Shown one piece after another: positions 2,144 to 30,479 of a stretch of DNA of 64,000 nt. Made by a program: the position numbers and the translations under genes. Below the pieces are notes generated by a model. That model was not told the origin of the DNA and did no database searches. It saw nothing but the letters and a program-made list of their open reading frames with translations. Position 1 is the stretch's first letter. Each line of letters starts with the position of its first letter. The stretch is taken from contig NZ_CANPVT010000002.1 in the NCBI RefSeq assembly GCF_947581735.1, positions 315,511 through 379,510 of the forward strand. The letters run 5' to 3'. Origin of the DNA: Candidatus Palauibacter soopunensis (lineage in GTDB: Bacteria > Gemmatimonadota > Gemmatimonadetes > Palauibacterales > Palauibacteraceae).

Positions 2144-3811
2144 ATGAAGACGACCGGCCGCGCCATTCGAAGCGCTCTGACTGCCATTTCGGCGCTGATC
2201 CTGCTGGCCACGGCGGCGGAAGCCGCGCAGCCGATGCAGATGGTCGGGGCTCCGGACCGGGGCCCGGACGAGGGCGGGGGACCGTACGACCGCCTCATCA
2301 TCCGCGGCGCCACCGTGATCGACGGCACCGGCGCGCCCCCCATCGGACCGATGGACATCGTGATCGAGGGGAACCGCATCGTCGACGTCGTCGGCGTCGG
2401 CGTCCCGCAGCGCCCCATCGACGAGTCGCGCCGCCCCGGGCTCACCGTGGACGGCAACCCCGACGCCGTCGTGCACGAGATCGACGCCACGGGCATGTAC
2501 GTCCTGCCGGGGTTCGTCGACCTCCACCTGCACACCGGCGGCGTCCCCAAGGCGCCCGAGGCGGAGTACACGTACAAGCTCTGGATGTCGCACGGGATCA
2601 CCACCGGCCGCGGCGTCGCCTTCGGTCCCCACGACTGGTCCGTCCAGGAGAAGGCGCGGAGCGCGGCGAACGAGATCGTGGCCCCCCGCATGTGGGTCTA
2701 TCCCTTCACGGGAGCGGGCGGAGAGGGATGGAGCGGCCGCCTGATCGACACCCCGGAGGACGCGCGCGACTGGGTCCGCTACGTGAAGGAGTCGGGCGGC
2801 GACGGGCTCAAGCTCAACTCGTTCCGCCCGGAGATCATGGAGGCGCTGCTCGACGAGGCGGTCCAACTCGGCCTCGGGAGCACCGCCCACCTCGGCCAGA
2901 TGGGCGTCGCGCAGATGAACGCGCTCGACGCCGCGCGCCTCGGCCTCGGCACCGTCACGCACTTCTACGGGCTGTTCGAGGCGCTGTACAAGGACACCGA
3001 CGTCCAGCCGTGGCCCCCCGAGATGAACTACAACGACGAGCAGCACCGCTTCGGGCAGGTGCCCATGCAGTGGAACCTCATCCACGAGCGCGGGAGCCCG
3101 GAGTGGAACGCCTTCCTCGAGGAGATGCTCTCGCTCGACGTCACCCTCGACCCCACGATGACCGCCTACCAGGCGAGCTGGGACGTGGACGACCAGATGT
3201 ATGCCCCGTGGCACGAGAACTACACGCTGCCGACGCTGTGGGAGTTCTACGAGGCGAACCGCGAGGACCACGGCTCGTACTACTTCGACTGGACGACGTG
3301 GGAGGAGGTCGCGTGGCGCAACTTCCTCGAGGTGTGGCACGATCTGCTCAACGACTACAAGAACATGGGCGGCCGCGTCACCGCGAGTTCGGACGCGGGC
3401 TACATCTACAACCTCATGGGGTTCTCCACGATCCAGGAGATGGAACTTCTGCAGCATGCCGGGTTCCATCCGCTGGAGGTGATCCGCGCCGCGACCATGC
3501 ACGCGGCCGAGACGCTGTTCAAGCCGACGGGCCGCCCCATCGAGTTCGGCGTCGTGCGACGCGGCCTGCTGGCGGACCTCGTGATCGTGGACGAGAACCC
3601 GATCCAGAACCTCAAGGTCCTGTACGGCACCGGGGCGCGGCGCCTGAACGACGAGACGGGAGAGGTCGAGACGGTCGGCGGCATCCTGTACACGATCAAG
3701 GACGGCATCGTCTACGACGCGAAGCGCCTCCTCGCCGACGTGGCCGAGATGGTCGAGGAGCAGAAGCGCGCCGTCACCACCGCCACCGACAACGGAGATA
3801 CGAATAGATGA
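2144..3811 (+). CDS. Secreted amidohydrolase family protein (D-aminoacylase / dihydroorotase-like metal-dependent hydrolase).
   Basis: Signal peptide MKTTGRAIRSALTAISALILLATAAEA; classic amidohydrolase N-terminus IIRGATVIDGTG…IVIEGNRIV…DATGMYVLPGFVDLHLH. Start set at the internal Met (the ORF track starts at 2123). Confidence 0.75.
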   Translation: MKTTGRAIRSALTAISALILLATAAEAAQPMQMVGAPDRGPDEGGGPYDRLIIRGATVIDGTGAPPIGPMDIVIEGNRIVDVVGVGVPQRPIDESRRPGLTVDGNPDAVVHEIDATGMYVLPGFVDLHLHTGGVPKAPEAEYTYKLWMSHGITTGRGVAFGPHDWSVQEKARSAANEIVAPRMWVYPFTGAGGEGWSGRLIDTPEDARDWVRYVKESGGDGLKLNSFRPEIMEALLDEAVQLGLGSTAHLGQMGVAQMNALDAARLGLGTVTHFYGLFEALYKDTDVQPWPPEMNYNDEQHRFGQVPMQWNLIHERGSPEWNAFLEEMLSLDVTLDPTMTAYQASWDVDDQMYAPWHENYTLPTLWEFYEANREDHGSYYFDWTTWEEVAWRNFLEVWHDLLNDYKNMGGRVTASSDAGYIYNLMGFSTIQEMELLQHAGFHPLEVIRAATMHAAETLFKPTGRPIEFGVVRRGLLADLVIVDENPIQNLKVLYGTGARRLNDETGEVETVGGILYTIKDGIVYDAKRLLADVAEMVEEQKRAVTTATDNGDTNR

Positions 3812-21631: not shown

Positions 21632-23353
21632 TCAGCCGCTGATCTCGTGTGCCTCGCCGGCGCCCCGCGGCAGCCGGATCCGCTCGACCAGCCGCTGCGC
21701 CTCCGGCGGGGGCGCCGGCGTGAAGCGGGACACGACGATCGCCACCGCGAAGTTCACCGCCATCCCGATGGACCCGATGCCTTCGGGTGAGATTCCGAAC
21801 CACCAGTTCTCCGCCACGTTGGCGGCCGGGTTCACGAACTTGAAGTAGACGATGTAGGCGGCGGTGAGCGTGATCCCGCACAGCATGCCCGCGATCGCCC
21901 CCTCTCGGTTGAGCCGCTTCGAGAAGATGCCGAGGATGATGACGGGGAAGAACGACGACGCCGCGAGCCCGAACGCGAACGCGACGACCTCCGCCACGAA
22001 GCCCGGCGGGTTGATGCCGAGGTATCCGGCCACGAGGACGGCGAGTCCGGCGCTCACCCGCGCCGCGATCAGTTCTCCGTGTTCGCTGATGTCCGGCCGC
22101 CAGTTGCGCTTCAGCAGATCGTGGCTGATCGCCGCCGAGAGCACGAGCAGCAGTCCGGCCGCCGTCGAGAGCGCCGCCGCCAGTCCGCCCGCCGCCACGA
22201 GCCCCACCACCCAGTTCGGCAGCCGGGCGATCTCCGGATTCGCGAGCACCATGATGTCGCGGTCGATCGTGAGCTCGTTCTGCACGGGAGCACCCGCGGC
22301 GTCCACCGCCTCCGGTCCCACGTACTGGATCAGCCCGTCCCCGTTGTGGTCCTCGTACGAGATCAATCCCGTCGCCTCCCACTTCGTGAACCACTCCGGC
22401 ATCTCCGCGTACGGCTGGTCCGTCACCGTGTTGAGCAGGTTCGTCCGCGCGAACACCGCCACCGCCGGCGCCGCCGTGTACAGCAGCGCGATGAACACGA
22501 GCGCCCAGCCCACGCTGATCCGCGCGTCCCGCACCCGTGGCACCGTATAGAAGCGGATGATTACGTGCGGCAGCCCCGCCGTCCCCACCATGAGCGCGGC
22601 CGTGATCGCCAGCACGTCGAGCGTCGACTTCGTGCCGTCCGTGTAGGCCGCGAACCCAAGCTCCTGGTGCAGGCCGTTCAGGCGGTCGAGCAGGAACGTC
22701 CCCGTCTCCTGCTCCGCCGCGCCGAGCCCGATCTGGGGAATCGGAATCCCCGTGACCAGCATCGACAGGAAGATCGCCGGCACCATGTACGCGAAGATGA
22801 GCACGCAGTACTGCGCCACCTGCGTGTAGGTGATCCCCTTCATCCCCCCGAGCACCGCGTAGAAGAAGACGATCCCCATCCCGATGACCACGCCCCAGAC
22901 GATGTCGATCTCCAGAAAGCGGCTGAACACGATCCCCACGCCGCGCATCTGGCCCGCGACGTAGGTGAAGGAGACGAAAATCGCGCAGATCACGGCCACG
23001 ACCCGCGCCGTCTGGGAGTAGTAGCGCTCGCCCACGAAGTCCGGGACGGTGAAGGCCCCGAACTTCCGCAGATACGGGGCGAGGAGCAGCGCCAGGAGCA
23101 CGTAGCCGCCCGTCCAGCCCATGAGGTAGACGGAGCCGTCGTAGCCCAGGAAGGAGATGATCCCGGCCATCGAGATGAAGGAGGCGGCCGACATCCAGTC
23201 CGCCGCCGTCGCCATCCCGTTGGCGAGGGGATGAACCCCTTTGCCCGCGACGTAGAACTCGCTCGTGGAATGGGCCCGCGACCAGATCGCGATCCCGATG
23301 TAGAGTGCGAACGAAAGCCCGACGAGCGTCGCCGTCCACTGGAGAACCGTCAT
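21632..23353 (-). CDS. actP: Cation/acetate symporter (sodium:solute symporter family).
   Basis: Strong similarity to ActP (13-14 TM, GxxxG-rich); paired with the upstream DUF485 gene. Confidence 0.9.
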   Translation of the reverse strand: MTVLQWTATLVGLSFALYIGIAIWSRAHSTSEFYVAGKGVHPLANGMATAADWMSAASFISMAGIISFLGYDGSVYLMGWTGGYVLLALLLAPYLRKFGAFTVPDFVGERYYSQTARVVAVICAIFVSFTYVAGQMRGVGIVFSRFLEIDIVWGVVIGMGIVFFYAVLGGMKGITYTQVAQYCVLIFAYMVPAIFLSMLVTGIPIPQIGLGAAEQETGTFLLDRLNGLHQELGFAAYTDGTKSTLDVLAITAALMVGTAGLPHVIIRFYTVPRVRDARISVGWALVFIALLYTAAPAVAVFARTNLLNTVTDQPYAEMPEWFTKWEATGLISYEDHNGDGLIQYVGPEAVDAAGAPVQNELTIDRDIMVLANPEIARLPNWVVGLVAAGGLAAALSTAAGLLLVLSAAISHDLLKRNWRPDISEHGELIAARVSAGLAVLVAGYLGINPPGFVAEVVAFAFGLAASSFFPVIILGIFSKRLNREGAIAGMLCGITLTAAYIVYFKFVNPAANVAENWWFGISPEGIGSIGMAVNFAVAIVVSRFTPAPPPEAQRLVERIRLPRGAGEAHEISG

Positions 23354-23643
23354 GCCGCGCCCTCCTCGTCACGCTCGTCGACGTCGAACTCCCGGTCGAG
23401 CCGGTTCATGAGGAAGACGTAGACGAAGATGAGGACGACGAAGACGTAGATCGCGCCCTGCTGCGCGAACCAGAACCCGAGCGGGAAGCCGGTCCCCGGG
23501 ATCCGGACCGCGTCGAGCGCGTCCGCGAACACGATCCCGGCGCCGTAGGACACCAGAGCCCAGATCGCGAGAAGGATCCCCACATAACGGAGATTGCGGC
23601 GCCAGTACGCCAGATGATCGCGGCCTGCTGCGGGTCGATTCAT
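23350..23643 (-). CDS. DUF485 (YjcH-like) small inner-membrane protein accompanying ActP.
   Basis: ~97 aa, two TM; ATGA overlap with actP. Confidence 0.85.
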   Translation of the reverse strand: MNRPAAGRDHLAYWRRNLRYVGILLAIWALVSYGAGIVFADALDAVRIPGTGFPLGFWFAQQGAIYVFVVLIFVYVFLMNRLDREFDVDERDEEGAA

Positions 23644-23763
23644 GGGTCTCCCAGCGTGCGGGTCCGAACTTCCACGGGCTGCCAGGACTTCACTTCAGCG
23701 ACGCCCAAGGCTGCGGCCCGGCTGGGCGGCGCGCCAGTGTAACGCCTCGCGCAGCGACGGCGG

Positions 23764-25449
23764 CTACCAGAACACGCCGAACACGAGCCAGGCCGAGATG
23801 GCGGCGAGAACTCCCGTGTAGAGCGCCGGGCTGGCCAGCAGCGGCACGCGTTCGCTGAAGGGGTGGAGGCGGATCGGACCGAGTTCGCCGGAACTCTTCG
23901 CCAGCCAGTCGTCGGCGCGCGGGGCCGACGCATCGCCGCCGCCCGCCCCGATACCGGCCGTCCCGCGCCAGCGCGGGAGCAGCGCCGCGAAGGCGCAGCC
24001 GGCGGCCGTGAAAGCCACGGCCCACACGAACGCCTCCCACTGTCCGGTCAGCCAGGAAGGCAGCCACGAGATGTCGATGACCTCGCGATCCACGAAGCCG
24101 ATGACGCCGTACAGCCCTCCGGTGGCGAGACCGGCCATCCCCACCCGCCGGTTCGAGCGCGTGACGGCGCCGACGAGGTAGACGATGAGAAGCGGCGTGA
24201 CGAAGACGGACGTGACCGAGCGGAAGGCGGCGAGCATCGTCGGCGCGCGCAGGATCAGCGGCAGGTAGGCGAACCCCAGGACCAGGATCGCGACCGTCGC
24301 GATGCGTCCCACGCGGAGGTAGTGGGCGTCGTCCCGCTCCCGCGAGATGAAGCGCGCGTAGATGTCGCGCGTGAAGACGGCCGACATCGACGAGCCCATC
24401 GAATCGAAGGTGCTCACCGCGGCGCTCACCACGCCGGCCACCACGAGTCCCTTGGCGCCGATCCCGAGATAGGTGGAGATCAGGTGCGGGTACATTTCGT
24501 CGGGCCGGGCGAAGTCCGGGAACTGCGCCCGCCCGAAGAGCCCGAGCATGTCCGTGAAGAGCAGGATGACGAGGCTCACGCCGGCTCCCAGGACGCCGGC
24601 CATCTTCATGTCCCACAGCGAGCGGGCGCCCATCATCCGCTGGGTGGACGTGTGGCTCACCGTCCACCAGCCGGAGGAGATGAGAATCCACGCGATGAAG
24701 ATGACGGCCGGCGACGTGGTCCCGTCCCGTCCCCGGAAGGCGCCCACGTGGACCAGGTCCGCGGCGGCGAGGCCCGGCGCGAGTCCCTCGGCTGTCGTCC
24801 CCAGGCCTTCCAGTTGCGCAACCATCGCGTCCCAGCCGCCCACGGCCTGCCAGACGGCGATGCACACCGCGAGACCTCCCGCCATCACGAGCACGCTCTG
24901 CAGCACGTCCGTCGCGACGACCGCCCGCAACCCGCCCACGGCGGTGTAGACGCCCGACAGGACGACGAGCGATACGATGAGCGCCCAGGACAGTTCCGGT
25001 CTCAGTCCGCCGACCCCCACCAGGGTGAGATGGACGGACCAGATCATGAGCCCCAGCACGGAGGTCCGGTACTGGATCTGGATCAGCGCGCCGAGGACGC
25101 GCGTCCCCGGACCGAAGCGGTGCTCGAGGTACTCGGAGTTGGTGTACAGTCCGGCCCGGTAGATGGCGGGGACGATCACGAACGTGGCGATCGTCACCCC
25201 GATGAGTCCGCCGAACGTGTGCGCGGAGAGGAAATGCAGGCCCTCGCTCGCGATCGTCCCCGTGGCCGACACGAACTCCGAGTTGTCCATGTTGGTCGCG
25301 AAGAGGGACAGGCCGACGGCCCACCACGGCAGCGCTCTCGAACTCAGGAACCACTCGCCGCTCGTGGAGGTGCCGCGCGCGCGGCGCAGCCCGTAGGCGA
25401 TGATCGCACCGTTCAGTCCGAGGACGATCAGCCAGTCCAGGGCGCTCAA
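23764..25449 (-). CDS. Sodium:solute symporter (SSS) family transporter.
   Basis: SSS family signature regions; ~560 aa polytopic. Confidence 0.85.
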   Translation of the reverse strand: MSALDWLIVLGLNGAIIAYGLRRARGTSTSGEWFLSSRALPWWAVGLSLFATNMDNSEFVSATGTIASEGLHFLSAHTFGGLIGVTIATFVIVPAIYRAGLYTNSEYLEHRFGPGTRVLGALIQIQYRTSVLGLMIWSVHLTLVGVGGLRPELSWALIVSLVVLSGVYTAVGGLRAVVATDVLQSVLVMAGGLAVCIAVWQAVGGWDAMVAQLEGLGTTAEGLAPGLAAADLVHVGAFRGRDGTTSPAVIFIAWILISSGWWTVSHTSTQRMMGARSLWDMKMAGVLGAGVSLVILLFTDMLGLFGRAQFPDFARPDEMYPHLISTYLGIGAKGLVVAGVVSAAVSTFDSMGSSMSAVFTRDIYARFISRERDDAHYLRVGRIATVAILVLGFAYLPLILRAPTMLAAFRSVTSVFVTPLLIVYLVGAVTRSNRRVGMAGLATGGLYGVIGFVDREVIDISWLPSWLTGQWEAFVWAVAFTAAGCAFAALLPRWRGTAGIGAGGGDASAPRADDWLAKSSGELGPIRLHPFSERVPLLASPALYTGVLAAISAWLVFGVFW

Positions 25450-25492
25450 GGGATGGAGACGCTCCTGTCGTGAGGTTGCCGCGGTCGGGCAA

Positions 25493-25655
25493 AGTGTCGT
25501 GTCCCGGAAATACCCCGGCTATTCGAGCGCCGATGCATCCGGCTCCGCGGCGTTGCTCCTCCTCGAAATGACGCTGCCATTCCTCGTCGGAGCGCCTAGC
25601 GGAATCCGGCGCCTCGGCACTCTCGGTAGCTCGTGTATTTCCGGGACACGACACT
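25493..25655. repeat. 163-bp intergenic element bounded by perfect 21-bp terminal inverted repeats (AGTGTCGTGTCCCGGAAATAC … GTATTTCCGGGACACGACACT); MITE-like or a large regulatory hairpin.
   Basis: Seen directly: 25493-25513 is the exact reverse complement of 25635-25655; the interior is also imperfectly palindromic. Confidence 0.5.
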
Positions 25656-25715
25656 GGGCGTCCGCTACCGTAGCCGGCGCCCCGCCCGACGGTCAACGGC
25701 GGCCGCTCGGGTCGG

Positions 25716-27020
25716 TCATGCGGCGGCCGGCCGGGCCGGCAATGCTGCCGCCAGCGCGCGGTCGAGATCCTCGACGATGTCGTCGATGTGCTCGATGCCG
25801 ACGGAGAGCCGGATCGTCTCCGGACGCACGCCCACGCTGAGCTGCTCTTCCTCGGTGAGCTGCCGGTGCGTCGTGGACGCCGGGTGGCACGCCAGCGACT
25901 TCGCATCCCCGATGTTCACGAGCCGCTTGAACAGCTCGAGCGCGTCGTAGAACTTCACGCCCGCCTCGAAGCCGCCCTTCACCCCGAAGGTCAGGATCCC
26001 CGAAGCCCGGCCGCCCAGGTACTTCAGGGCCAGCTCGTGGTACGGATCGCCCGGCAATCCGGCGTAGCTCACCCACTCCACGGCCGGGTGGTCCTTCAGG
26101 TGCTTCGCCACGGCCAGCGCGTTCTCGGAGTGGCGCTCGATGCGGAGGTTCAGCGTCTGGATCCCCTGGATGATCTGGAACGCGTTGAAGGGCGAAATCG
26201 CCGACCCGGTGTTCCGCAACGGCACCGTGCGCGCCCGACCGATGTACGCGGCCGGCCCCAGCGCCTCCGTGTAGACGACCCCGTGGTAGCTGGGTTCCGG
26301 CGTCGTGAACTGCGGATAACGGATCTCGTGCTCCTCCCACGGGAATTTCCCGGAATCGACGATGGCGCCGCCGAGTGAGTTGCCGTGGCCGCCGATGTAC
26401 TTCGTCAGCGAATGCACCACGATGTCGAACCCGTGTTCGATCGGCTTGAGGAGCGCGGGCGTGGCGACCGTGTTGTCCACGATGGTGGCGACTCCGTGGG
26501 CGTGCGCCACGTCGGCCACCGCCGCGAGGTCTACGATGTTGCCCGCCGGGTTCCCGATGCTCTCGACGAACACCGCCTTCGTGCGGGCATCGATCAGCTT
26601 GGCCAGATCGTCCGGGCCGTCGCCTTCGGCGAAGCGCACTTCGATCCCCAGCTGCGGCAGCATGTGGGCGAAGAGCGTGTACGTGCCGCCGTACAACTGG
26701 GGCACCGAGACGATGTTGTCCCCCGCGGCGGCGAGATTGAGGATGGAGTAGTTGACCGCTGCGCTGCCGGAGGAGAGCGCCAGCGACGCCAGCCCGCGCT
26801 CGAGCTGGGCAATCCGCTCCTCCAGCACGGCCTGCGTGGGGTTCATGATGCGGGAGTAGATGTTTCCCTCGACCTCGAGGTTGAAGAGGTCCGCGCCGTG
26901 CTGCGCGTCGTCGAACTCGTACGCCACGGTCTGGTACAGCGGCACCGCGACGGCGTGCGTGGTGGGCTCGGACTCGTATCCGAGGTGAATCGCTACTGTT
27001 TCGTCTCTCATTGGTCTCAA
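25716..27020 (-). CDS. metY: O-acetylhomoserine aminocarboxypropyltransferase (O-acetylhomoserine sulfhydrylase), PLP-dependent.
   Basis: Cys/Met-metabolism PLP family; HSLTKYIGGHG PLP-lysine region; ~434 aa. Confidence 0.9.
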   Translation of the reverse strand: MRPMRDETVAIHLGYESEPTTHAVAVPLYQTVAYEFDDAQHGADLFNLEVEGNIYSRIMNPTQAVLEERIAQLERGLASLALSSGSAAVNYSILNLAAAGDNIVSVPQLYGGTYTLFAHMLPQLGIEVRFAEGDGPDDLAKLIDARTKAVFVESIGNPAGNIVDLAAVADVAHAHGVATIVDNTVATPALLKPIEHGFDIVVHSLTKYIGGHGNSLGGAIVDSGKFPWEEHEIRYPQFTTPEPSYHGVVYTEALGPAAYIGRARTVPLRNTGSAISPFNAFQIIQGIQTLNLRIERHSENALAVAKHLKDHPAVEWVSYAGLPGDPYHELALKYLGGRASGILTFGVKGGFEAGVKFYDALELFKRLVNIGDAKSLACHPASTTHRQLTEEEQLSVGVRPETIRLSVGIEHIDDIVEDLDRALAAALPARPAAA

Positions 27021-27095
27021 CCCTTTCGTGAGATCGATTGCGACTGGATCAGGCCCGAACGCCGGGCCGTGAACTTCCGTGTACCTGGCCGATGC

Positions 27096-28169
27096 TCATC
27101 GGTGCGGAACCCGGATCGGGGTGCCTCGCGCGTCAGCGGACTCTCGCGCGAGACACAACTCGGCATTGAGCAAACAGGCGCCGGCGGCGCCCCGGATGCC
27201 GTTGTGCGAGACCACGGTCATCGCGAGGTCGTGTGGCGGCGCGGCACGAATCCTTCCGACGCTCGCCGCCATCCCTCCGGCCGCGCCGATGTCCAGGCGC
27301 GGCTGTGGACGGTCGGGCTCCGACCGCACGATGAGCGGTCGCTCGGGAAGCGAAGGCAGACCCGGCAGGGATGGCGGGCCTCTGAACTCGGCGAGCGCCC
27401 GCGCGGCGTCCCCGGGACTCGCGGGCGATGCGAGCTTCAGAAAGACGTTCGCGGTGTGGCCGTCGAGCACCGGTACGCGGTTGACGCTCGCCGCCACGGG
27501 AATATCGGTCCCCAGGATCTTGTTGAGTTCGGGACCGATCTTCTCCTCTTCGCCCGGGATCCAGGGAATGGCGTTCCCTCCGATCTGAACGGAGCCGATC
27601 CCGTGGAGCCCGGCGCCGGTGACGGCCTGCAGCGTGACGATCGTGGCCGACTCGATGCCGAAAGTCTCCTGGATGGGAGCCAGCGCCAACGCCAGCCCCG
27701 CGACCACGCAGTTCGGGTTGGCGACGAGGCGGCCCCCCCGCTCCGACCACGGCTGGGTCGCCGTGAGAGTCAGGGCCTGCGGGTTCACCTCCGGCACCAA
27801 CAGCGGCACGTCCGCTCGCAGCCGGTGCGCCGAGGCGTTGGTGCATACGGTGTGCCCCGCTTCGGCGAGCGACGGTTCGAGCCGGTGCGCCACGCGCGAA
27901 GGGAGCGCGGAGAGCACGAGCCGGCAGGGCGGCCGCTCGACCGCCATGCGCAGGGGCAGCGGAACAGCCTCCGCGGGAGGATCTCCTCCGAGACTCCACC
28001 GGACCACGTCGCCGTACCTCTCGCCCGCATGCGTCTCGGACGCGGCGACCGCCGCAAGCCGGAGCGTCGGGTGGCCGTCCAGCATCCGAACGAGCCGCTG
28101 CCCGACGATCCCGGTCGCGCCCAGGACGGCCACGGGCACGCGTTCATTCGACGGATGGGTCAGGCGCAT
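27096..28169 (-). CDS. asd: Aspartate-semialdehyde dehydrogenase.
   Basis: VAVLGATGIVGQ NAD(P)-binding N-terminus; active-site Cys region ANPNCVV. Start set at the internal ATG (RBS ggagaggag upstream); the 5' extension in the track overlaps the lysC-like gene. Confidence 0.85.
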   Translation of the reverse strand: MRLTHPSNERVPVAVLGATGIVGQRLVRMLDGHPTLRLAAVAASETHAGERYGDVVRWSLGGDPPAEAVPLPLRMAVERPPCRLVLSALPSRVAHRLEPSLAEAGHTVCTNASAHRLRADVPLLVPEVNPQALTLTATQPWSERGGRLVANPNCVVAGLALALAPIQETFGIESATIVTLQAVTGAGLHGIGSVQIGGNAIPWIPGEEEKIGPELNKILGTDIPVAASVNRVPVLDGHTANVFLKLASPASPGDAARALAEFRGPPSLPGLPSLPERPLIVRSEPDRPQPRLDIGAAGGMAASVGRIRAAPPHDLAMTVVSHNGIRGAAGACLLNAELCLARESADARGTPIRVPHR

Positions 28170-28939
28170 CGGGCACGCTCCTCTCCGCCATGGCCGGTGT
28201 CGGGCGGCGGGTCGTTTCTGCCGACCCAGGTGCCCGTGCCGCCTGGAGCCGCCACCCTGAAGGCGACCCGGTGCCGCTCGGCGAAGCTCAGCGCCCGGTC
28301 CTGAACGACTCCGGCGCCCGTTCGCCGGGCCTCGCTCCACGATGTCCGGCGGATCGGCTTGACGTGCGGGAACCGTTTCGGGTCGGCCGGGAAGATCCCA
28401 TCCACATCCTTCACGAGACGGACTTCCGCCGCGCCGAGCGCGTGTGCGAGGAAAAGCGCCGTAAGGTCCGAGCCTCCCCGCCCGAGCAGCGACGTGATGC
28501 CCGTGGCGTCGACGCCCACGAATCCGGGAAGGACGATCACGTCGTGCGTGGCCAGGGCCGTCTCGATCGCCCGAGCGTCCACGTCCACCGGCTCGGCGGC
28601 CCCGAGCGGCCCCCGGGTGCGGATCGGCAGGCGCGAGAACGACATGCCCACCGCACGCACGCGCCCCGTCACCAGGGCGAGGTGCAGCAGGGCGACGGAC
28701 GCTTCCTCCCCGGGCGCGAGGAGAGATCCGATGAGGTCGTCCGGGAGCGAGGGCGCAACTTCGCGCGCCGCGGAAAGAAGATCGTCGGTGGTGTCCCCCA
28801 TGGCCGACACGACGGCAACGACCTTCGCGCCGGCGGCGACTTCAGCCCGGATCTCCTCGACCGCCAGCCGGTATGCGGCCGGATGCGCCAGCACGGATGA
28901 ACCGAATTTGAGTACGTGAACGCGGCGAACTTCGCGCAA
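28160..28939 (-). CDS. lysC: Aspartokinase-like amino-acid kinase, catalytic domain only (no ACT regulatory domains); probable TTG start.
   Basis: VLKFGSSV N-terminus, VVVSAMGDTTDDLL, LLAPGEEASVALL, SLLGRGGSDLTA, VKDVDGIFPADP. The track's 5' extension (to 29050) reads through the SAM riboswitch and is rejected. Confidence 0.65.
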   Translation of the reverse strand: MREVRRVHVLKFGSSVLAHPAAYRLAVEEIRAEVAAGAKVVAVVSAMGDTTDDLLSAAREVAPSLPDDLIGSLLAPGEEASVALLHLALVTGRVRAVGMSFSRLPIRTRGPLGAAEPVDVDARAIETALATHDVIVLPGFVGVDATGITSLLGRGGSDLTALFLAHALGAAEVRLVKDVDGIFPADPKRFPHVKPIRRTSWSEARRTGAGVVQDRALSFAERHRVAFRVAAPGGTGTWVGRNDPPPDTGHGGEERARCA

Positions 28940-29037
28940 TGAAACGCCTCCCCCCGAGTCTCGATTCACGCTCAGCGGACTCCGGAGAAGCGACGCCCTG
29001 GGAACTGCAGCTGCCGTGCAATGAAGCGCGGCGGGCG

Positions 29038-29153
29038 ACTCATCTACCAACGGATTACATCCGTCGCAGGAGTTGGCACATCAGTGGAAGAGCCACCTTC
29101 CACAGGTTGCCCCGGTGTCTTCGGGCCTGTCCCTCGACCGGTCTCGATGAGCG
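29038..29153 (-). promoter_or_regulatory. SAM-I (S-box) riboswitch in the leader of the lysC-like/asd/metY operon.
   Basis: Minus-strand RNA: GCUCAUCGAGACCGGUCGAGGGACAGGCCCGAAGACACCGGGGCAACC…UGUGCCAACUCCUGCGACGGAUGUAAUCCGUUGGUAGAUGAG. P1 CUCAUC/GAUGAG, GAGGGA, GGCCC, GGCAACC, GUGCCAA-UCCUGC all present. Confidence 0.85.
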
Positions 29154-29273
29154 TTGTGGGCGCGGAGGCTACAGGGTCGTGGGCGGCGCGTCAAGTTTTG
29201 GCGGGCGAAGCCGGGCGAGAGGCGCCGCGCGTGTTTCTTGACCGCCGTTGCCGGACCCATTAGGGTCGGCCGC

Positions 29274-29385
29274 TACTCATCGAGACCGGCTGAGGGACGG
29301 GCCCTTTGAAGCCGGGGCAACCGGGGCGCAACGCCCAGCGGTGCCAACTCCTGCGGACCCCGAACACGGGTCCGAGAGATGAGCG
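29274..29385 (+). promoter_or_regulatory. SAM-I (S-box) riboswitch in the leader of metX.
   Basis: ACUCAUCGAGACCGGCUGAGGGACGGGCCCUUUGAAGCCGGGGCAACCGGGGCGCAACGCCCAGCGGUGCCAACUCCUGCGGACCCCGAACACGGGUCCGAGAGAUGAG matches the P1-P4 consensus almost residue for residue. Confidence 0.9.
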
Positions 29386-29504
29386 TCGGACCCGCACGGT
29401 CGGTCGGCTGCTCCGGAGTTGGCGTCGCGAACCACAGACGCGAGCCGAAACGGAGACACAGCTTGAACGCCGTACTGCCGGAGGGTCGGAGGGGCGCCGT
29501 CGCG

Positions 29505-30479
29505 ATGCCGGCGGCGTGGAGACCGGAACTGGAGGCCGGGATCGACGCCTGCTTCCGGGTGCGCTACGAACTCGCCGGACCCGAGGGCGCCCCGCTGCTC
29601 GTCGCGATGGGGGGGATCTCCGCCGACCGCCACGTCTGCGCCAACGCCCTGGACCCCGCGCCCGGCTGGTGGAGGAAGCTGGCGGGCCCGGGTCTGGCCA
29701 TCGACACGAACCGCTGGCGGCTGCTCGCGATCGACTTCCTCGGATCTCCCGGGACGTTCGAGTCGCCGGATCGGATCCATCTCACGCCCGGAGACCAGGC
29801 GGACGCCGTCGCGGTCGCGCTGCGCCACCTCGGTGTCGAACGGGCCCACCGCATGCTGGGCGCCTCCTACGGCGGCATGGTCGCGCTGGCGATGGGGATC
29901 CGCCATCCCGCCCGCCTCGACGGCGTCGTGCTGATCGGCGCGGCGCACCGCGGCCATCCCCAGGCCATCGGAATCCACGCGGTGCAGCGCTGGATCGTCG
30001 AGTTCGCGCTCCGGCACGGCCGGGGGAGCGAAGGCGTGGCGCTCGCCAGGGCGCTGGCGTTCACGACCTACAAGTCCGCGGAAGGGCTCGACGCCCGCTT
30101 CCCGCACGACTGGGAGTGGGAGGATGGCGCCCCGGTCTACGCCGTCGGCCGCTACCTGGAGAAACAGGGACGGGAGTTCGCGGAACGGTTCGAGGCGGAG
30201 ACCTATCTGACGCTGTCGGCTTCGGTCGACCTGTGCGACCTGCGTCCGGACGAACTCGGCGTCCCCGCCTGGCTCATCGGGTGGGAGGAGGACACGCTGG
30301 TCCCGCCCTGGCTGCTCCTGGAGACCGCAGGCCGGATCGGCGCGCCTTCTCGCCTGCGGATTCTGAACTCCGACGCGGGCCACGACGCCTTCCTGCTCCA
30401 CGCGCCCGACTACGAGGAAGCCCTGAGGGAGAGTCTCTTCGCGACGGAACCGCAGGCCCTCGCGGGCTCAGCCGGATGA
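29505..30479 (+). CDS. metX: Homoserine O-acetyltransferase (alpha/beta hydrolase).
   Basis: GASYGGMVA nucleophile elbow; MetX family. Start set at the ATG at 29505, downstream of the riboswitch; the track's 29379 start lies inside the aptamer. Confidence 0.85.
   Translation: MPAAWRPELEAGIDACFRVRYELAGPEGAPLLVAMGGISADRHVCANALDPAPGWWRKLAGPGLAIDTNRWRLLAIDFLGSPGTFESPDRIHLTPGDQADAVAVALRHLGVERAHRMLGASYGGMVALAMGIRHPARLDGVVLIGAAHRGHPQAIGIHAVQRWIVEFALRHGRGSEGVALARALAFTTYKSAEGLDARFPHDWEWEDGAPVYAVGRYLEKQGREFAERFEAETYLTLSASVDLCDLRPDELGVPAWLIGWEEDTLVPPWLLLETAGRIGAPSRLRILNSDAGHDAFLLHAPDYEEALRESLFATEPQALAGSAG

Follow-up and report, generated by a model that had tools for sequence, protein, structure and literature searches.

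Divergent SAM-I riboswitches, probably acting on translation, between metX and an aspartate kinase-asd-metY gene cluster in Candidatus Palauibacter soopunensis

How might a member of the Gemmatimonadota tie the synthesis of methionine to its supply of S-adenosylmethionine (SAM)? This question is raised by an intergenic region within a 64,000-nucleotide (nt) stretch of the Candidatus Palauibacter soopunensis genome (contig NZ_CANPVT010000002.1, positions 315,511 to 379,510; hereafter, the window). Here metX, on the plus strand, diverges from a minus-strand gene for a short aspartate kinase without ACT domains (AKs), which is followed by asd and metY. The original prediction, made from the sequence letters, had placed in this region two complete SAM-I (S-box) aptamers, one on each strand and about 120 bp apart, spanning 29038-29385. 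We scanned the window with cmscan against all 4227 Rfam families. Only two matches in the 64 kb exceeded the gathering score, and both are to SAM-I (RF00162, gathering score 44.4 bits), with a span that agrees with the predicted one to within 1 nt:

29274-29385, plus strand: SAM-I (S-box) aptamer in the metX leader (RF00162, 88.4 bits, E=1.1e-19)
29037-29153, minus strand: SAM-I (S-box) aptamer in the AKs-asd-metY leader (RF00162, 74.0 bits, E=1.8e-15)

The two aptamers are separated by a spacer of ~120 bp (29154-29273). Both extend over positions 1-108 of the RF00162 model, neither being truncated, and both score 30-44 bits over the gathering score. The cmscan alignments display on both strands the P1 and core motifs quoted in the original prediction (CUCAUC...GAUGAG for P1, GAGGGA/GGCCC, GCAACC, and GUGCCAACUCCUGC), and the core nucleotides GAGGGA, GGCCC, GCAACC, GGUGCCAAnUCCUGC, and AGAUGAG, found on both strands, are invariant across relatives. 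Helices P1-P4 are paired in both alignments, with 3 and 6 non-canonical pair marks, respectively. A MAFFT alignment of 20 aptamers from the window and related loci recovered P1-P3 with 8 compensatory pairs; P4 was left unaligned there, and the AKs-leader alignment pairs it (columns 95-115), with compensatory changes at 2 pairs. Each aptamer is sense-oriented in a 5' leader, one before metX and the other before AKs-asd-metY. By score, P1-P4 helices, core nucleotides, and gene context, both elements are thus genuine SAM-I riboswitch aptamers, and as such would be expected to bind SAM. Neither of the outcomes named as refuting the original prediction, bit scores under the gathering threshold or P1-P4 helices that fail to form, was seen, and the prediction of two aptamers is confirmed. 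A permissive Rfam search of 28880-29540 identified no other RNA family (T-box, SAM-IV, or similar) in the expression platforms. A match to COG3860 in the same interval scored 14.6 bits, which is chance level, and was discarded.

What do these aptamers control, transcription or translation? Platform folding had been suggested as the means of telling a terminator from helices that sequester the Shine-Dalgarno (SD) sequence. A scan of 28700-29800 detected no intrinsic terminator (hairpin plus U-run) in either leader, and we therefore reject transcription attenuation by a classical terminator. SD-sequestering helices are predicted in both leaders. Because intrinsic terminators are absent from this interval and SD:CUCC anti-SD hairpins are conserved, we consider SAM-dependent translational repression, exerted by two independent switches with different platforms, the probable mode of control. 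The elements of the two platforms are as follows:

29386-29462, plus strand: metX expression platform, with an SD-sequestering fold and a 14-nt segment complementary to the aptamer core
29406-29414, plus strand: anti-SD of the metX platform, GGCUGCUCC
29415-29428, plus strand: metX segment GGAGUUGGCGUCGC, complementary to the aptamer core GCGGUGCCAACUCC at 29338-29351
29422-29447, plus strand: inner hairpin of the metX platform (predicted fold)
29452-29456, plus strand: metX SD, GGAGA
28940-29036, minus strand: AKs expression platform, with a two-hairpin consensus structure (RNAalifold)
29037->28994, minus strand: AKs platform hairpin CGCCC...GGGCG (RNAalifold)
28992->28984, minus strand: AKs anti-SD, CGCUUCUCC
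28983->28978, minus strand: GGAGUC of the AKs platform
28976->28968, minus strand: AKs-platform box, GCUGAGCGU
28960->28956, minus strand: GACUC of the AKs platform
28955->28947, minus strand: AKs SD, GGGGGGAGG

In the predicted fold of the metX platform, the inner hairpin is enclosed by pairing of GCUG-CUCCG with CGGAG-ACA-CAGC, a stretch made up of the SD and the bases leading up to the start codon. When the platform is folded in isolation, this CUCC:GGAG helix hides the SD in all four relatives and in an Acidobacteriota leader (L006; related loci are designated by L numbers throughout), and in L161 the SD-sequestering fold is retained despite a 14-nt deletion. Immediately 3' of the anti-SD lies GGAGUUGGCGUCGC, a perfect 14-bp complement, including two G-U pairs, of the aptamer-core segment GCGGUGCCAACUCC. 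A run this long arose in 4 of 2000 shuffles. Complementarity between aptamer core and platform is seen again in L001, L161, and L163 and, independently, in the Acidobacteriota loci L006 (14 bp) and L029 (11 bp). RNAalifold selects this core:platform helix together with pairing between the P1 3' strand and the anti-SD. The segment 29415-29428 could act as an anti-sequestor, which would give the metX leader a coherent ON design.

The AKs platform is built differently. Whether given 7 or 11 homologous AKs leaders, RNAalifold returned the same two hairpins, in which the SD is paired. The second hairpin joins the anti-SD (CGCUUCUCC-G-GAGUC) to GACUC-GG-GGGGAGGCG, that is, to the SD. Across the 11 leaders, which represent divergent lineages, 95.2% of cells are paired, versus 37-53% with slid partners; there are 7 compensatory pairs, and the observed covariation score was reached by 0 of 500 shuffles. 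The SD hairpin forms in both constrained states. Predicted folding energies for the AKs leader are -97.1 kcal/mol for an ON-like fold, the unconstrained minimum, and -94.1 kcal/mol for the OFF fold, a gap of 3 kcal/mol as expected for a switch. In the ON-like fold, the aptamer 5' half forms a long interrupted duplex with the anti-SD region, in which a GAUGAG-like box takes part as a mimic of the P1 3' strand. Nine of 11 AKs leaders retain this box (GGAGUCC-GAUGAG) in the sequestor loop; in the clade of the window it has become GCUGAGCGU, which still forms 7 bp with ACGCUCA. We tentatively put forward such a 5' invasion (P1-5'/P2-5') as a low-confidence candidate for the ON state of the AKs leader. 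No clear anti-sequestor was found in the AKs platform when duplex energies and complementary runs were compared with those of shuffles.

The spacer between the aptamers contains a promoter-like site for each unit:

29238-29266, plus strand: promoter-like site of metX (-35 TTGACC, 29238-29243; 17-nt spacer; -10 TAGGGT, 29261-29266)
29166-29194, minus strand: promoter-like site of AKs-asd-metY (-35 TTGACG, 29194->29189; 17-nt spacer; -10 TAGCCT, 29171->29166)

Within the metX site, L001, L161, and L163 all share TTTCTTGAC without change and retain positions A2 and T6 of the -10 hexamer; the AKs site is conserved in the same three loci. The DNA between the two -35 boxes varies from ~20 to ~100 bp among relatives, with the boxes themselves kept. 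A sigma-70 consensus scan of 28700-29800 returned nothing. Because both sets of hexamers score below the scanner's threshold, we infer the two independent, back-to-back promoters from this conservation. Transcripts initiated here, with start sites predicted near 29272 (plus strand) and near 29159 (minus strand), would carry leader RNAs of ~190 nt (plus strand, metX) and ~220 nt (minus strand, AKs), the latter presumably extending into an AKs-asd-metY operon.

According to the mechanism we propose, two independent SAM-I switches would be transcribed outward from these back-to-back promoters in the ~120-bp spacer. When SAM is abundant, it would bind each aptamer and lock P1-P4. The locked aptamer would free its platform, allowing the CUCC-containing anti-SD to pair with the SD and block translation initiation, after which the mRNA may be lost through Rho or decay. 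At low SAM, the anti-SD and the metX segment 29415-29428 would be captured by the P1 3' strand and the aptamer core (29338-29351), so that the SD is freed. For AKs, the candidate is a fold in which the anti-SD region, along with the GAUGAG-like box, invades P1-5'/P2-5' in the aptamer 5' half. The overlap of AKs and asd by 10 nt suggests translational coupling of the two genes, with metY following. The net effect would be that SAM feeds back on a supply of aspartate semialdehyde dedicated to methionine (AKs and Asd), as well as on homoserine activation by MetX and sulfhydrylation by MetY.

Several observations weigh against this mechanism. All of the structures are predictions for RNA so rich in GC that random sequence, too, folds strongly, and the whole-leader z-scores are -2.2 and +0.4. 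Because minimum-free-energy folds of whole leaders depend strongly on the boundaries chosen, with the AKs leader no better than shuffles, we gave preference to comparative structure. In the construct tested, the predicted stability of the candidate metX ON state falls 12 kcal/mol short of that of the OFF state. In the AKs leader, the 5'-invasion duplex betters shuffles by only ~1.5 standard deviations, which is no better than chance; the longest complementary run between aptamer and platform is 7 nt, below the shuffle mean; and the GAUGAG-like box is not kept in L005. Finally, the promoter hexamers fall under the threshold of a consensus scanner. The analysis establishes the identity of the aptamers and genes, the lack of intrinsic terminators, the conserved SD-sequestering helices, and the conserved arrangement; the promoters and transcription start sites, the extent of the operon, the binding of SAM, the ON structures, and a translational rather than transcriptional mode of control are what we infer.

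The locus might also work in other ways. The switches might act mainly on transcription, through a Rho-dependent terminator or a non-canonical one without a U-tract, with the SD hairpins secondary. The leaders are long, untranslated, and C-rich, features suited to Rho loading, and a translationally repressed leader commonly turns into a Rho target. Neither leader, however, has a terminator-like hairpin with a U-run, and the element that covariation shows to be conserved is precisely the SD-pairing helix, so we regard primarily transcriptional control as unlikely. A related uncertainty attends SAM-I(Xcc) of Xanthomonas campestris, for which Rho likewise could not be excluded (PMC7270179). That riboswitch precedes a metA(X)-metB-hom operon, has no terminator, and is mainly translational; its SD is sequestered without SAM, and uncharged tRNAfMet binds the anti-SD in a manner that does not need the anticodon (PMC7270179). 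By analogy, the conserved two-hairpin module of the AKs-type platform may need a second input for SD release, such as uncharged initiator tRNA, loss of SAM alone being insufficient. The lack of a convincing AKs anti-sequestor, the formation of the SD hairpin in both constrained states, the resemblance to SAM-I(Xcc), and the retention of the GGAGUCC-GAUGAG box in the sequestor loop would fit such a requirement. Yet this support is either negative or by analogy; the dispensability of the anticodon in Xcc leaves the AUG of the box without support as a specifier; and the box is more simply read as a competitor for the P1 5' strand, and GCUGAGCGU retains its 7 bp with ACGCUCA. A second signal at this platform thus appears improbable. 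Were it real, the metX switch would answer to SAM alone, and the AKs switch to SAM and translation status together. The window contains no tRNA genes; the tRNAs located beside the met loci of L041 and L013 are those for Asp and Val and hence irrelevant to the tRNAfMet idea.

It is also conceivable that only one aptamer is functional and that the other, a copy produced by an inversion or duplication, is decaying. The P1-P2 sequences of the two aptamers are nearly identical, and, compared with the metX-metZ-AKs(-asd) operons of other Gemmatimonadota, the locus has undergone rearrangement. Decay is nevertheless difficult to reconcile with scores so far above the gathering score and with intact cores in both aptamers, or with platforms that differ from one another while each is internally consistent. 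Moreover, both aptamers and their platforms are kept in relatives whose AKs protein is only ~80% identical. We therefore consider a decaying copy very improbable.

How did two switches come to share one intergenic region? Close relatives were collected by exact-protein look-up; among the matches listed, a metagenome scan gave mostly distant aspartokinases. The nearest public locus is OZ220691.1 (L001), with 95% AKs identity. The divergent layout with two riboswitches is kept in L001, L161/L162, and L163. The plus-strand aptamer is conserved in L001, L161, and L163, and the minus-strand aptamer has almost the same sequence in L001, L161, L163, and L165 and is also conserved in L164, L167, L168, and L005. 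In other Gemmatimonadota and some Acidobacteriota, a single SAM-I stands before a metX-metZ-like-AKs(-asd) operon, and in further loci SAM-I lies directly ahead of AKs(-asd) or of AKs alone. Because the leaders of metX-metZ-AKs operons are homologous to the AKs leader of the window, platform included, the minus-strand switch appears to represent the ancestral leader of the operon. The metX unit, whose platform is of another design, appears to have come later, by rearrangement or acquisition. In the literature searched, we found no description of a divergent pair of riboswitches of the same class. The pair at this locus is two ordinary units that share one intergenic region, and both are new members of SAM-I.

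Gene content varies among these loci. L163 encodes AKs-metY without asd, and L165 and L166 encode AKs-asd and lack both metY and a divergent metX. The metY gene of L164 is split in the gene calls into fragments of 87 and 143 aa, which may reflect a pseudogene or an assembly error. A divergent layout is also seen in Brevundimonas (L011 and L012), where metX-metZ faces a gene for an aspartate kinase-homoserine dehydrogenase fusion. There, SAM-I is found on the metX side only (L011, 5375-5490, minus strand; L012, 5384-5501, minus strand), and nothing in Rfam matches the ~430 nt that precede the fusion gene. A metagenome-assembled genome from the Gemmatimonadetes (L010) carries a SAM-II riboswitch (RF00521, 42.6 bits; 3573-3648), ~2.4 kb upstream of an AK-like gene, and no SAM-I; another class of SAM riboswitch therefore serves a comparable context within the phylum.

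Which genes would the two switches govern, and where do these genes begin? The flanking genes are those of the original prediction (a lysC-like gene, asd, and metY on the minus strand and metX on the plus strand), with corrections of detail:

29463-30479, plus strand: metX, homoserine O-acyltransferase (NCBIfam PRK08775, 272.8 bits, and MetX models; Pfam Abhydrolase_1)
28160-28939, minus strand: AKs, a 259-aa aspartate-kinase catalytic domain (Pfam AA_kinase only; start TTG 28939)
27096-28169, minus strand: asd, archaeal/eukaryotic type (TIGR00978 asd_EA, 353.9 bits, cutoff 301.2)
25716-27011, minus strand: metY, O-acetylhomoserine sulfhydrylase (TIGR01326, 630.7 bits, cutoff 495.1)

The top NCBIfam model for MetX, PRK08775 ("homoserine O-succinyltransferase MetX"), scores under its cutoff of 296, and MetX is for this reason named by the broader term homoserine O-acyltransferase, which specifies no acyl donor. 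Several features favor TTG 29463 over ATG 29505 as the start of metX: a GGAGA Shine-Dalgarno sequence lies 6 nt upstream, the equivalent codon is GTG or TTG in L001, L161, and L163, and the L161 gene call begins there. In addition, two synonymous third-position changes in L001 within 29463-29505 would abolish any SD for ATG 29505. We conclude that metX most likely starts at TTG 29463, and the plus-strand platform is therefore 29386-29462. For AKs, we adopt TTG 28939 because homologues begin MREVRR..., matching this codon, ahead of which lies the SD GGGGGGAGG. Two further open reading frame starts, at 29379 and 29050, had been dismissed as artifacts, and this judgment holds: ATG 29379 is the AUG within the P1 3' strand AGAUGAG, and TTG 29050 falls inside the minus-strand aptamer. 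The first 10 nt of asd, from ATG 28169, overlap the end of AKs, stop codon included, and L161 has the same overlap. Between asd and metY is a gap of 85 nt, and no terminator was detected in this gap in a scan of 23300-27200. By comparison with the 431-aa L161 homologue, ATG 27011 is the probable start of metY.

The regulated reach of the locus is narrower in one respect than had been claimed. All four proteins had been assigned to the route from homoserine to homocysteine. MetX and MetY do cover that route, whereas the kinase and Asd act before homoserine, between aspartate and aspartate semialdehyde. By tblastn, the 64-kb window contains neither a homologue of homoserine dehydrogenase nor a second aspartate kinase. 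Since there is no hom in the window, the path from aspartate to homocysteine is not wholly under these two switches.

Downstream of metY, the minus strand encodes (21632-25449) a 561-aa sodium:solute symporter, a 97-aa open reading frame, and a second open reading frame of 573 aa. The matching order in relatives is an SSF-family symporter, a 97-aa DUF4212 protein, and a second SSF symporter of 573 aa. The symporter probably lies outside the SAM-controlled operon because it has its own conserved promoter-like site, TTGAC(C/G)-N18-TACGGT. Just downstream of this site, within the symporter leader, is an insertion of ~165 bp (25491-25655), located between the metY stop (25716) and the symporter start (25449); L001 and L161 lack it at the corresponding position. 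Its boundaries are formed by perfect 21-bp inverted repeats, GTATTTCCGGGACACGACACT, at 25493-25513 and 25635-25655 (two matches in 0 of 100 shuffles), and it looks like a miniature inverted-repeat transposable element or a long-hairpin insertion.

The first minus-strand gene, labeled "lysC-like," encodes an aspartate-kinase catalytic domain of 259 aa that has no ACT regulatory domains. AKs matches Pfam PF00696 (AA_kinase) at 118 bits. Its strong NCBIfam matches are all to aspartate-kinase models, of which it covers only positions ~3-240 of ~407, and the highest reaches 158.5 bits against a cutoff of 376. The top match in the PDB is 5yei_C (residues 5-240 of 412), and all 8 PDB matches are aspartokinases; AKs ends at the equivalent of residue ~240 in aspartate kinases of 407-421 aa. 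The aspartokinase motifs KFG.S, GEE.S, GRGGSD, and DVDG...DP are present and invariant in 20 homologues. The protein thus has the AA_kinase domain and the aspartokinase motifs, and falls short of C-terminal ACT domains and the equivalog cutoff. Judged from these features, AKs is a protein that should work like the catalytic domain of an aspartate kinase, and not a canonical LysC. Without ACT domains, it would presumably escape allosteric control.

Length in the AKs family is 250-290 aa throughout, and the 4 family hits that have an NCBI name are all called "hypothetical protein." The loci with a short kinase include L001-L006, L161-L169, L081, L082, L029, and L041. SAM-I lies upstream of the short kinase gene or its operon in 20 of the 21 loci examined, the exception being L027, and in L167, where AKs stands alone, SAM-I still precedes it. 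We found no description of an ACT-less aspartokinase under SAM control in the literature searched. Outside the Gemmatimonadota, the nearest relatives of AKs are ~570-580-aa fusions of an ACT-less aspartate kinase with homoserine dehydrogenase, found in the metX/metZ clusters of Brevundimonas, Acidobacteriota, Planctomycetota, and Gammaproteobacteria (for example, L012, 5932-7668, and L007, 6001-7710; also L008-L011, L013, L015-L025, and others). A parallel in regulatory logic is offered by metL of E. coli (aspartokinase II-homoserine dehydrogenase II), which is under MetJ/SAM repression and has no allosteric feedback inhibition, only expression control. The logic suggested for AKs is the same, that of a methionine-dedicated kinase controlled at the level of expression by SAM. 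The two differ in that metL is served by a protein repressor and encodes a fusion protein, whereas the gene described here has a riboswitch and encodes a stand-alone 259-aa kinase domain beside asd.

Among known riboswitches, the S-boxes of Firmicutes (B. subtilis yitJ, metI, and ykrTS/ykrWXYZ) share with the pair described here the RF00162 family, the four-helix core, and an OFF logic in response to SAM on methionine and sulfur genes; ykrTS and ykrWXYZ are among the S-box units listed for B. subtilis (PMC2743287). The Firmicutes elements operate through an intrinsic terminator and antiterminator, in contrast to the SD pairing predicted here, without a terminator and in a high-G+C Gemmatimonadota host. 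SAM-I(Xcc) is closer: it too lacks a terminator, has an anti-SD:SD output, and serves an operon opening with a MetX-type acyltransferase. MetX of the window scores highest on PRK08775, and SAM-I(Xcc) likewise precedes a MetX-type homoserine acyltransferase. Both leaders in the window have the traits of the SAM-I(Xcc) type, namely no intrinsic terminator and an SD held in an anti-SD hairpin. The differences are a single promoter and a hom gene in the operon of X. campestris, as against two switches on opposite strands, an ACT-less kinase, and asd. Tandem riboswitches, in which two aptamers occupy one leader, resemble this locus in having the same class within a few hundred bases. Unlike them, the two elements here lie on opposite strands with separate transcripts, promoters, and platforms, and no cooperative or logic-gate behavior is implied.

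According to the 2020 X. campestris study, all SAM-I riboswitches functionally characterized before it had been described as transcriptional switches (PMC7270179). The two leaders reported here would add further SAM-I examples that apparently mask the SD, and, with two platform designs on one aptamer class in one intergenic region, they form a natural pair for comparing switching mechanisms. For a phylum that has received little study, our analysis proposes how four genes of the methionine pathway are regulated, and it corrects two gene starts that ran through structured RNA. The pattern at the AKs loci suggests that feedback by SAM at the RNA level may replace allosteric feedback on a methionine-dedicated branch of the aspartate pathway.

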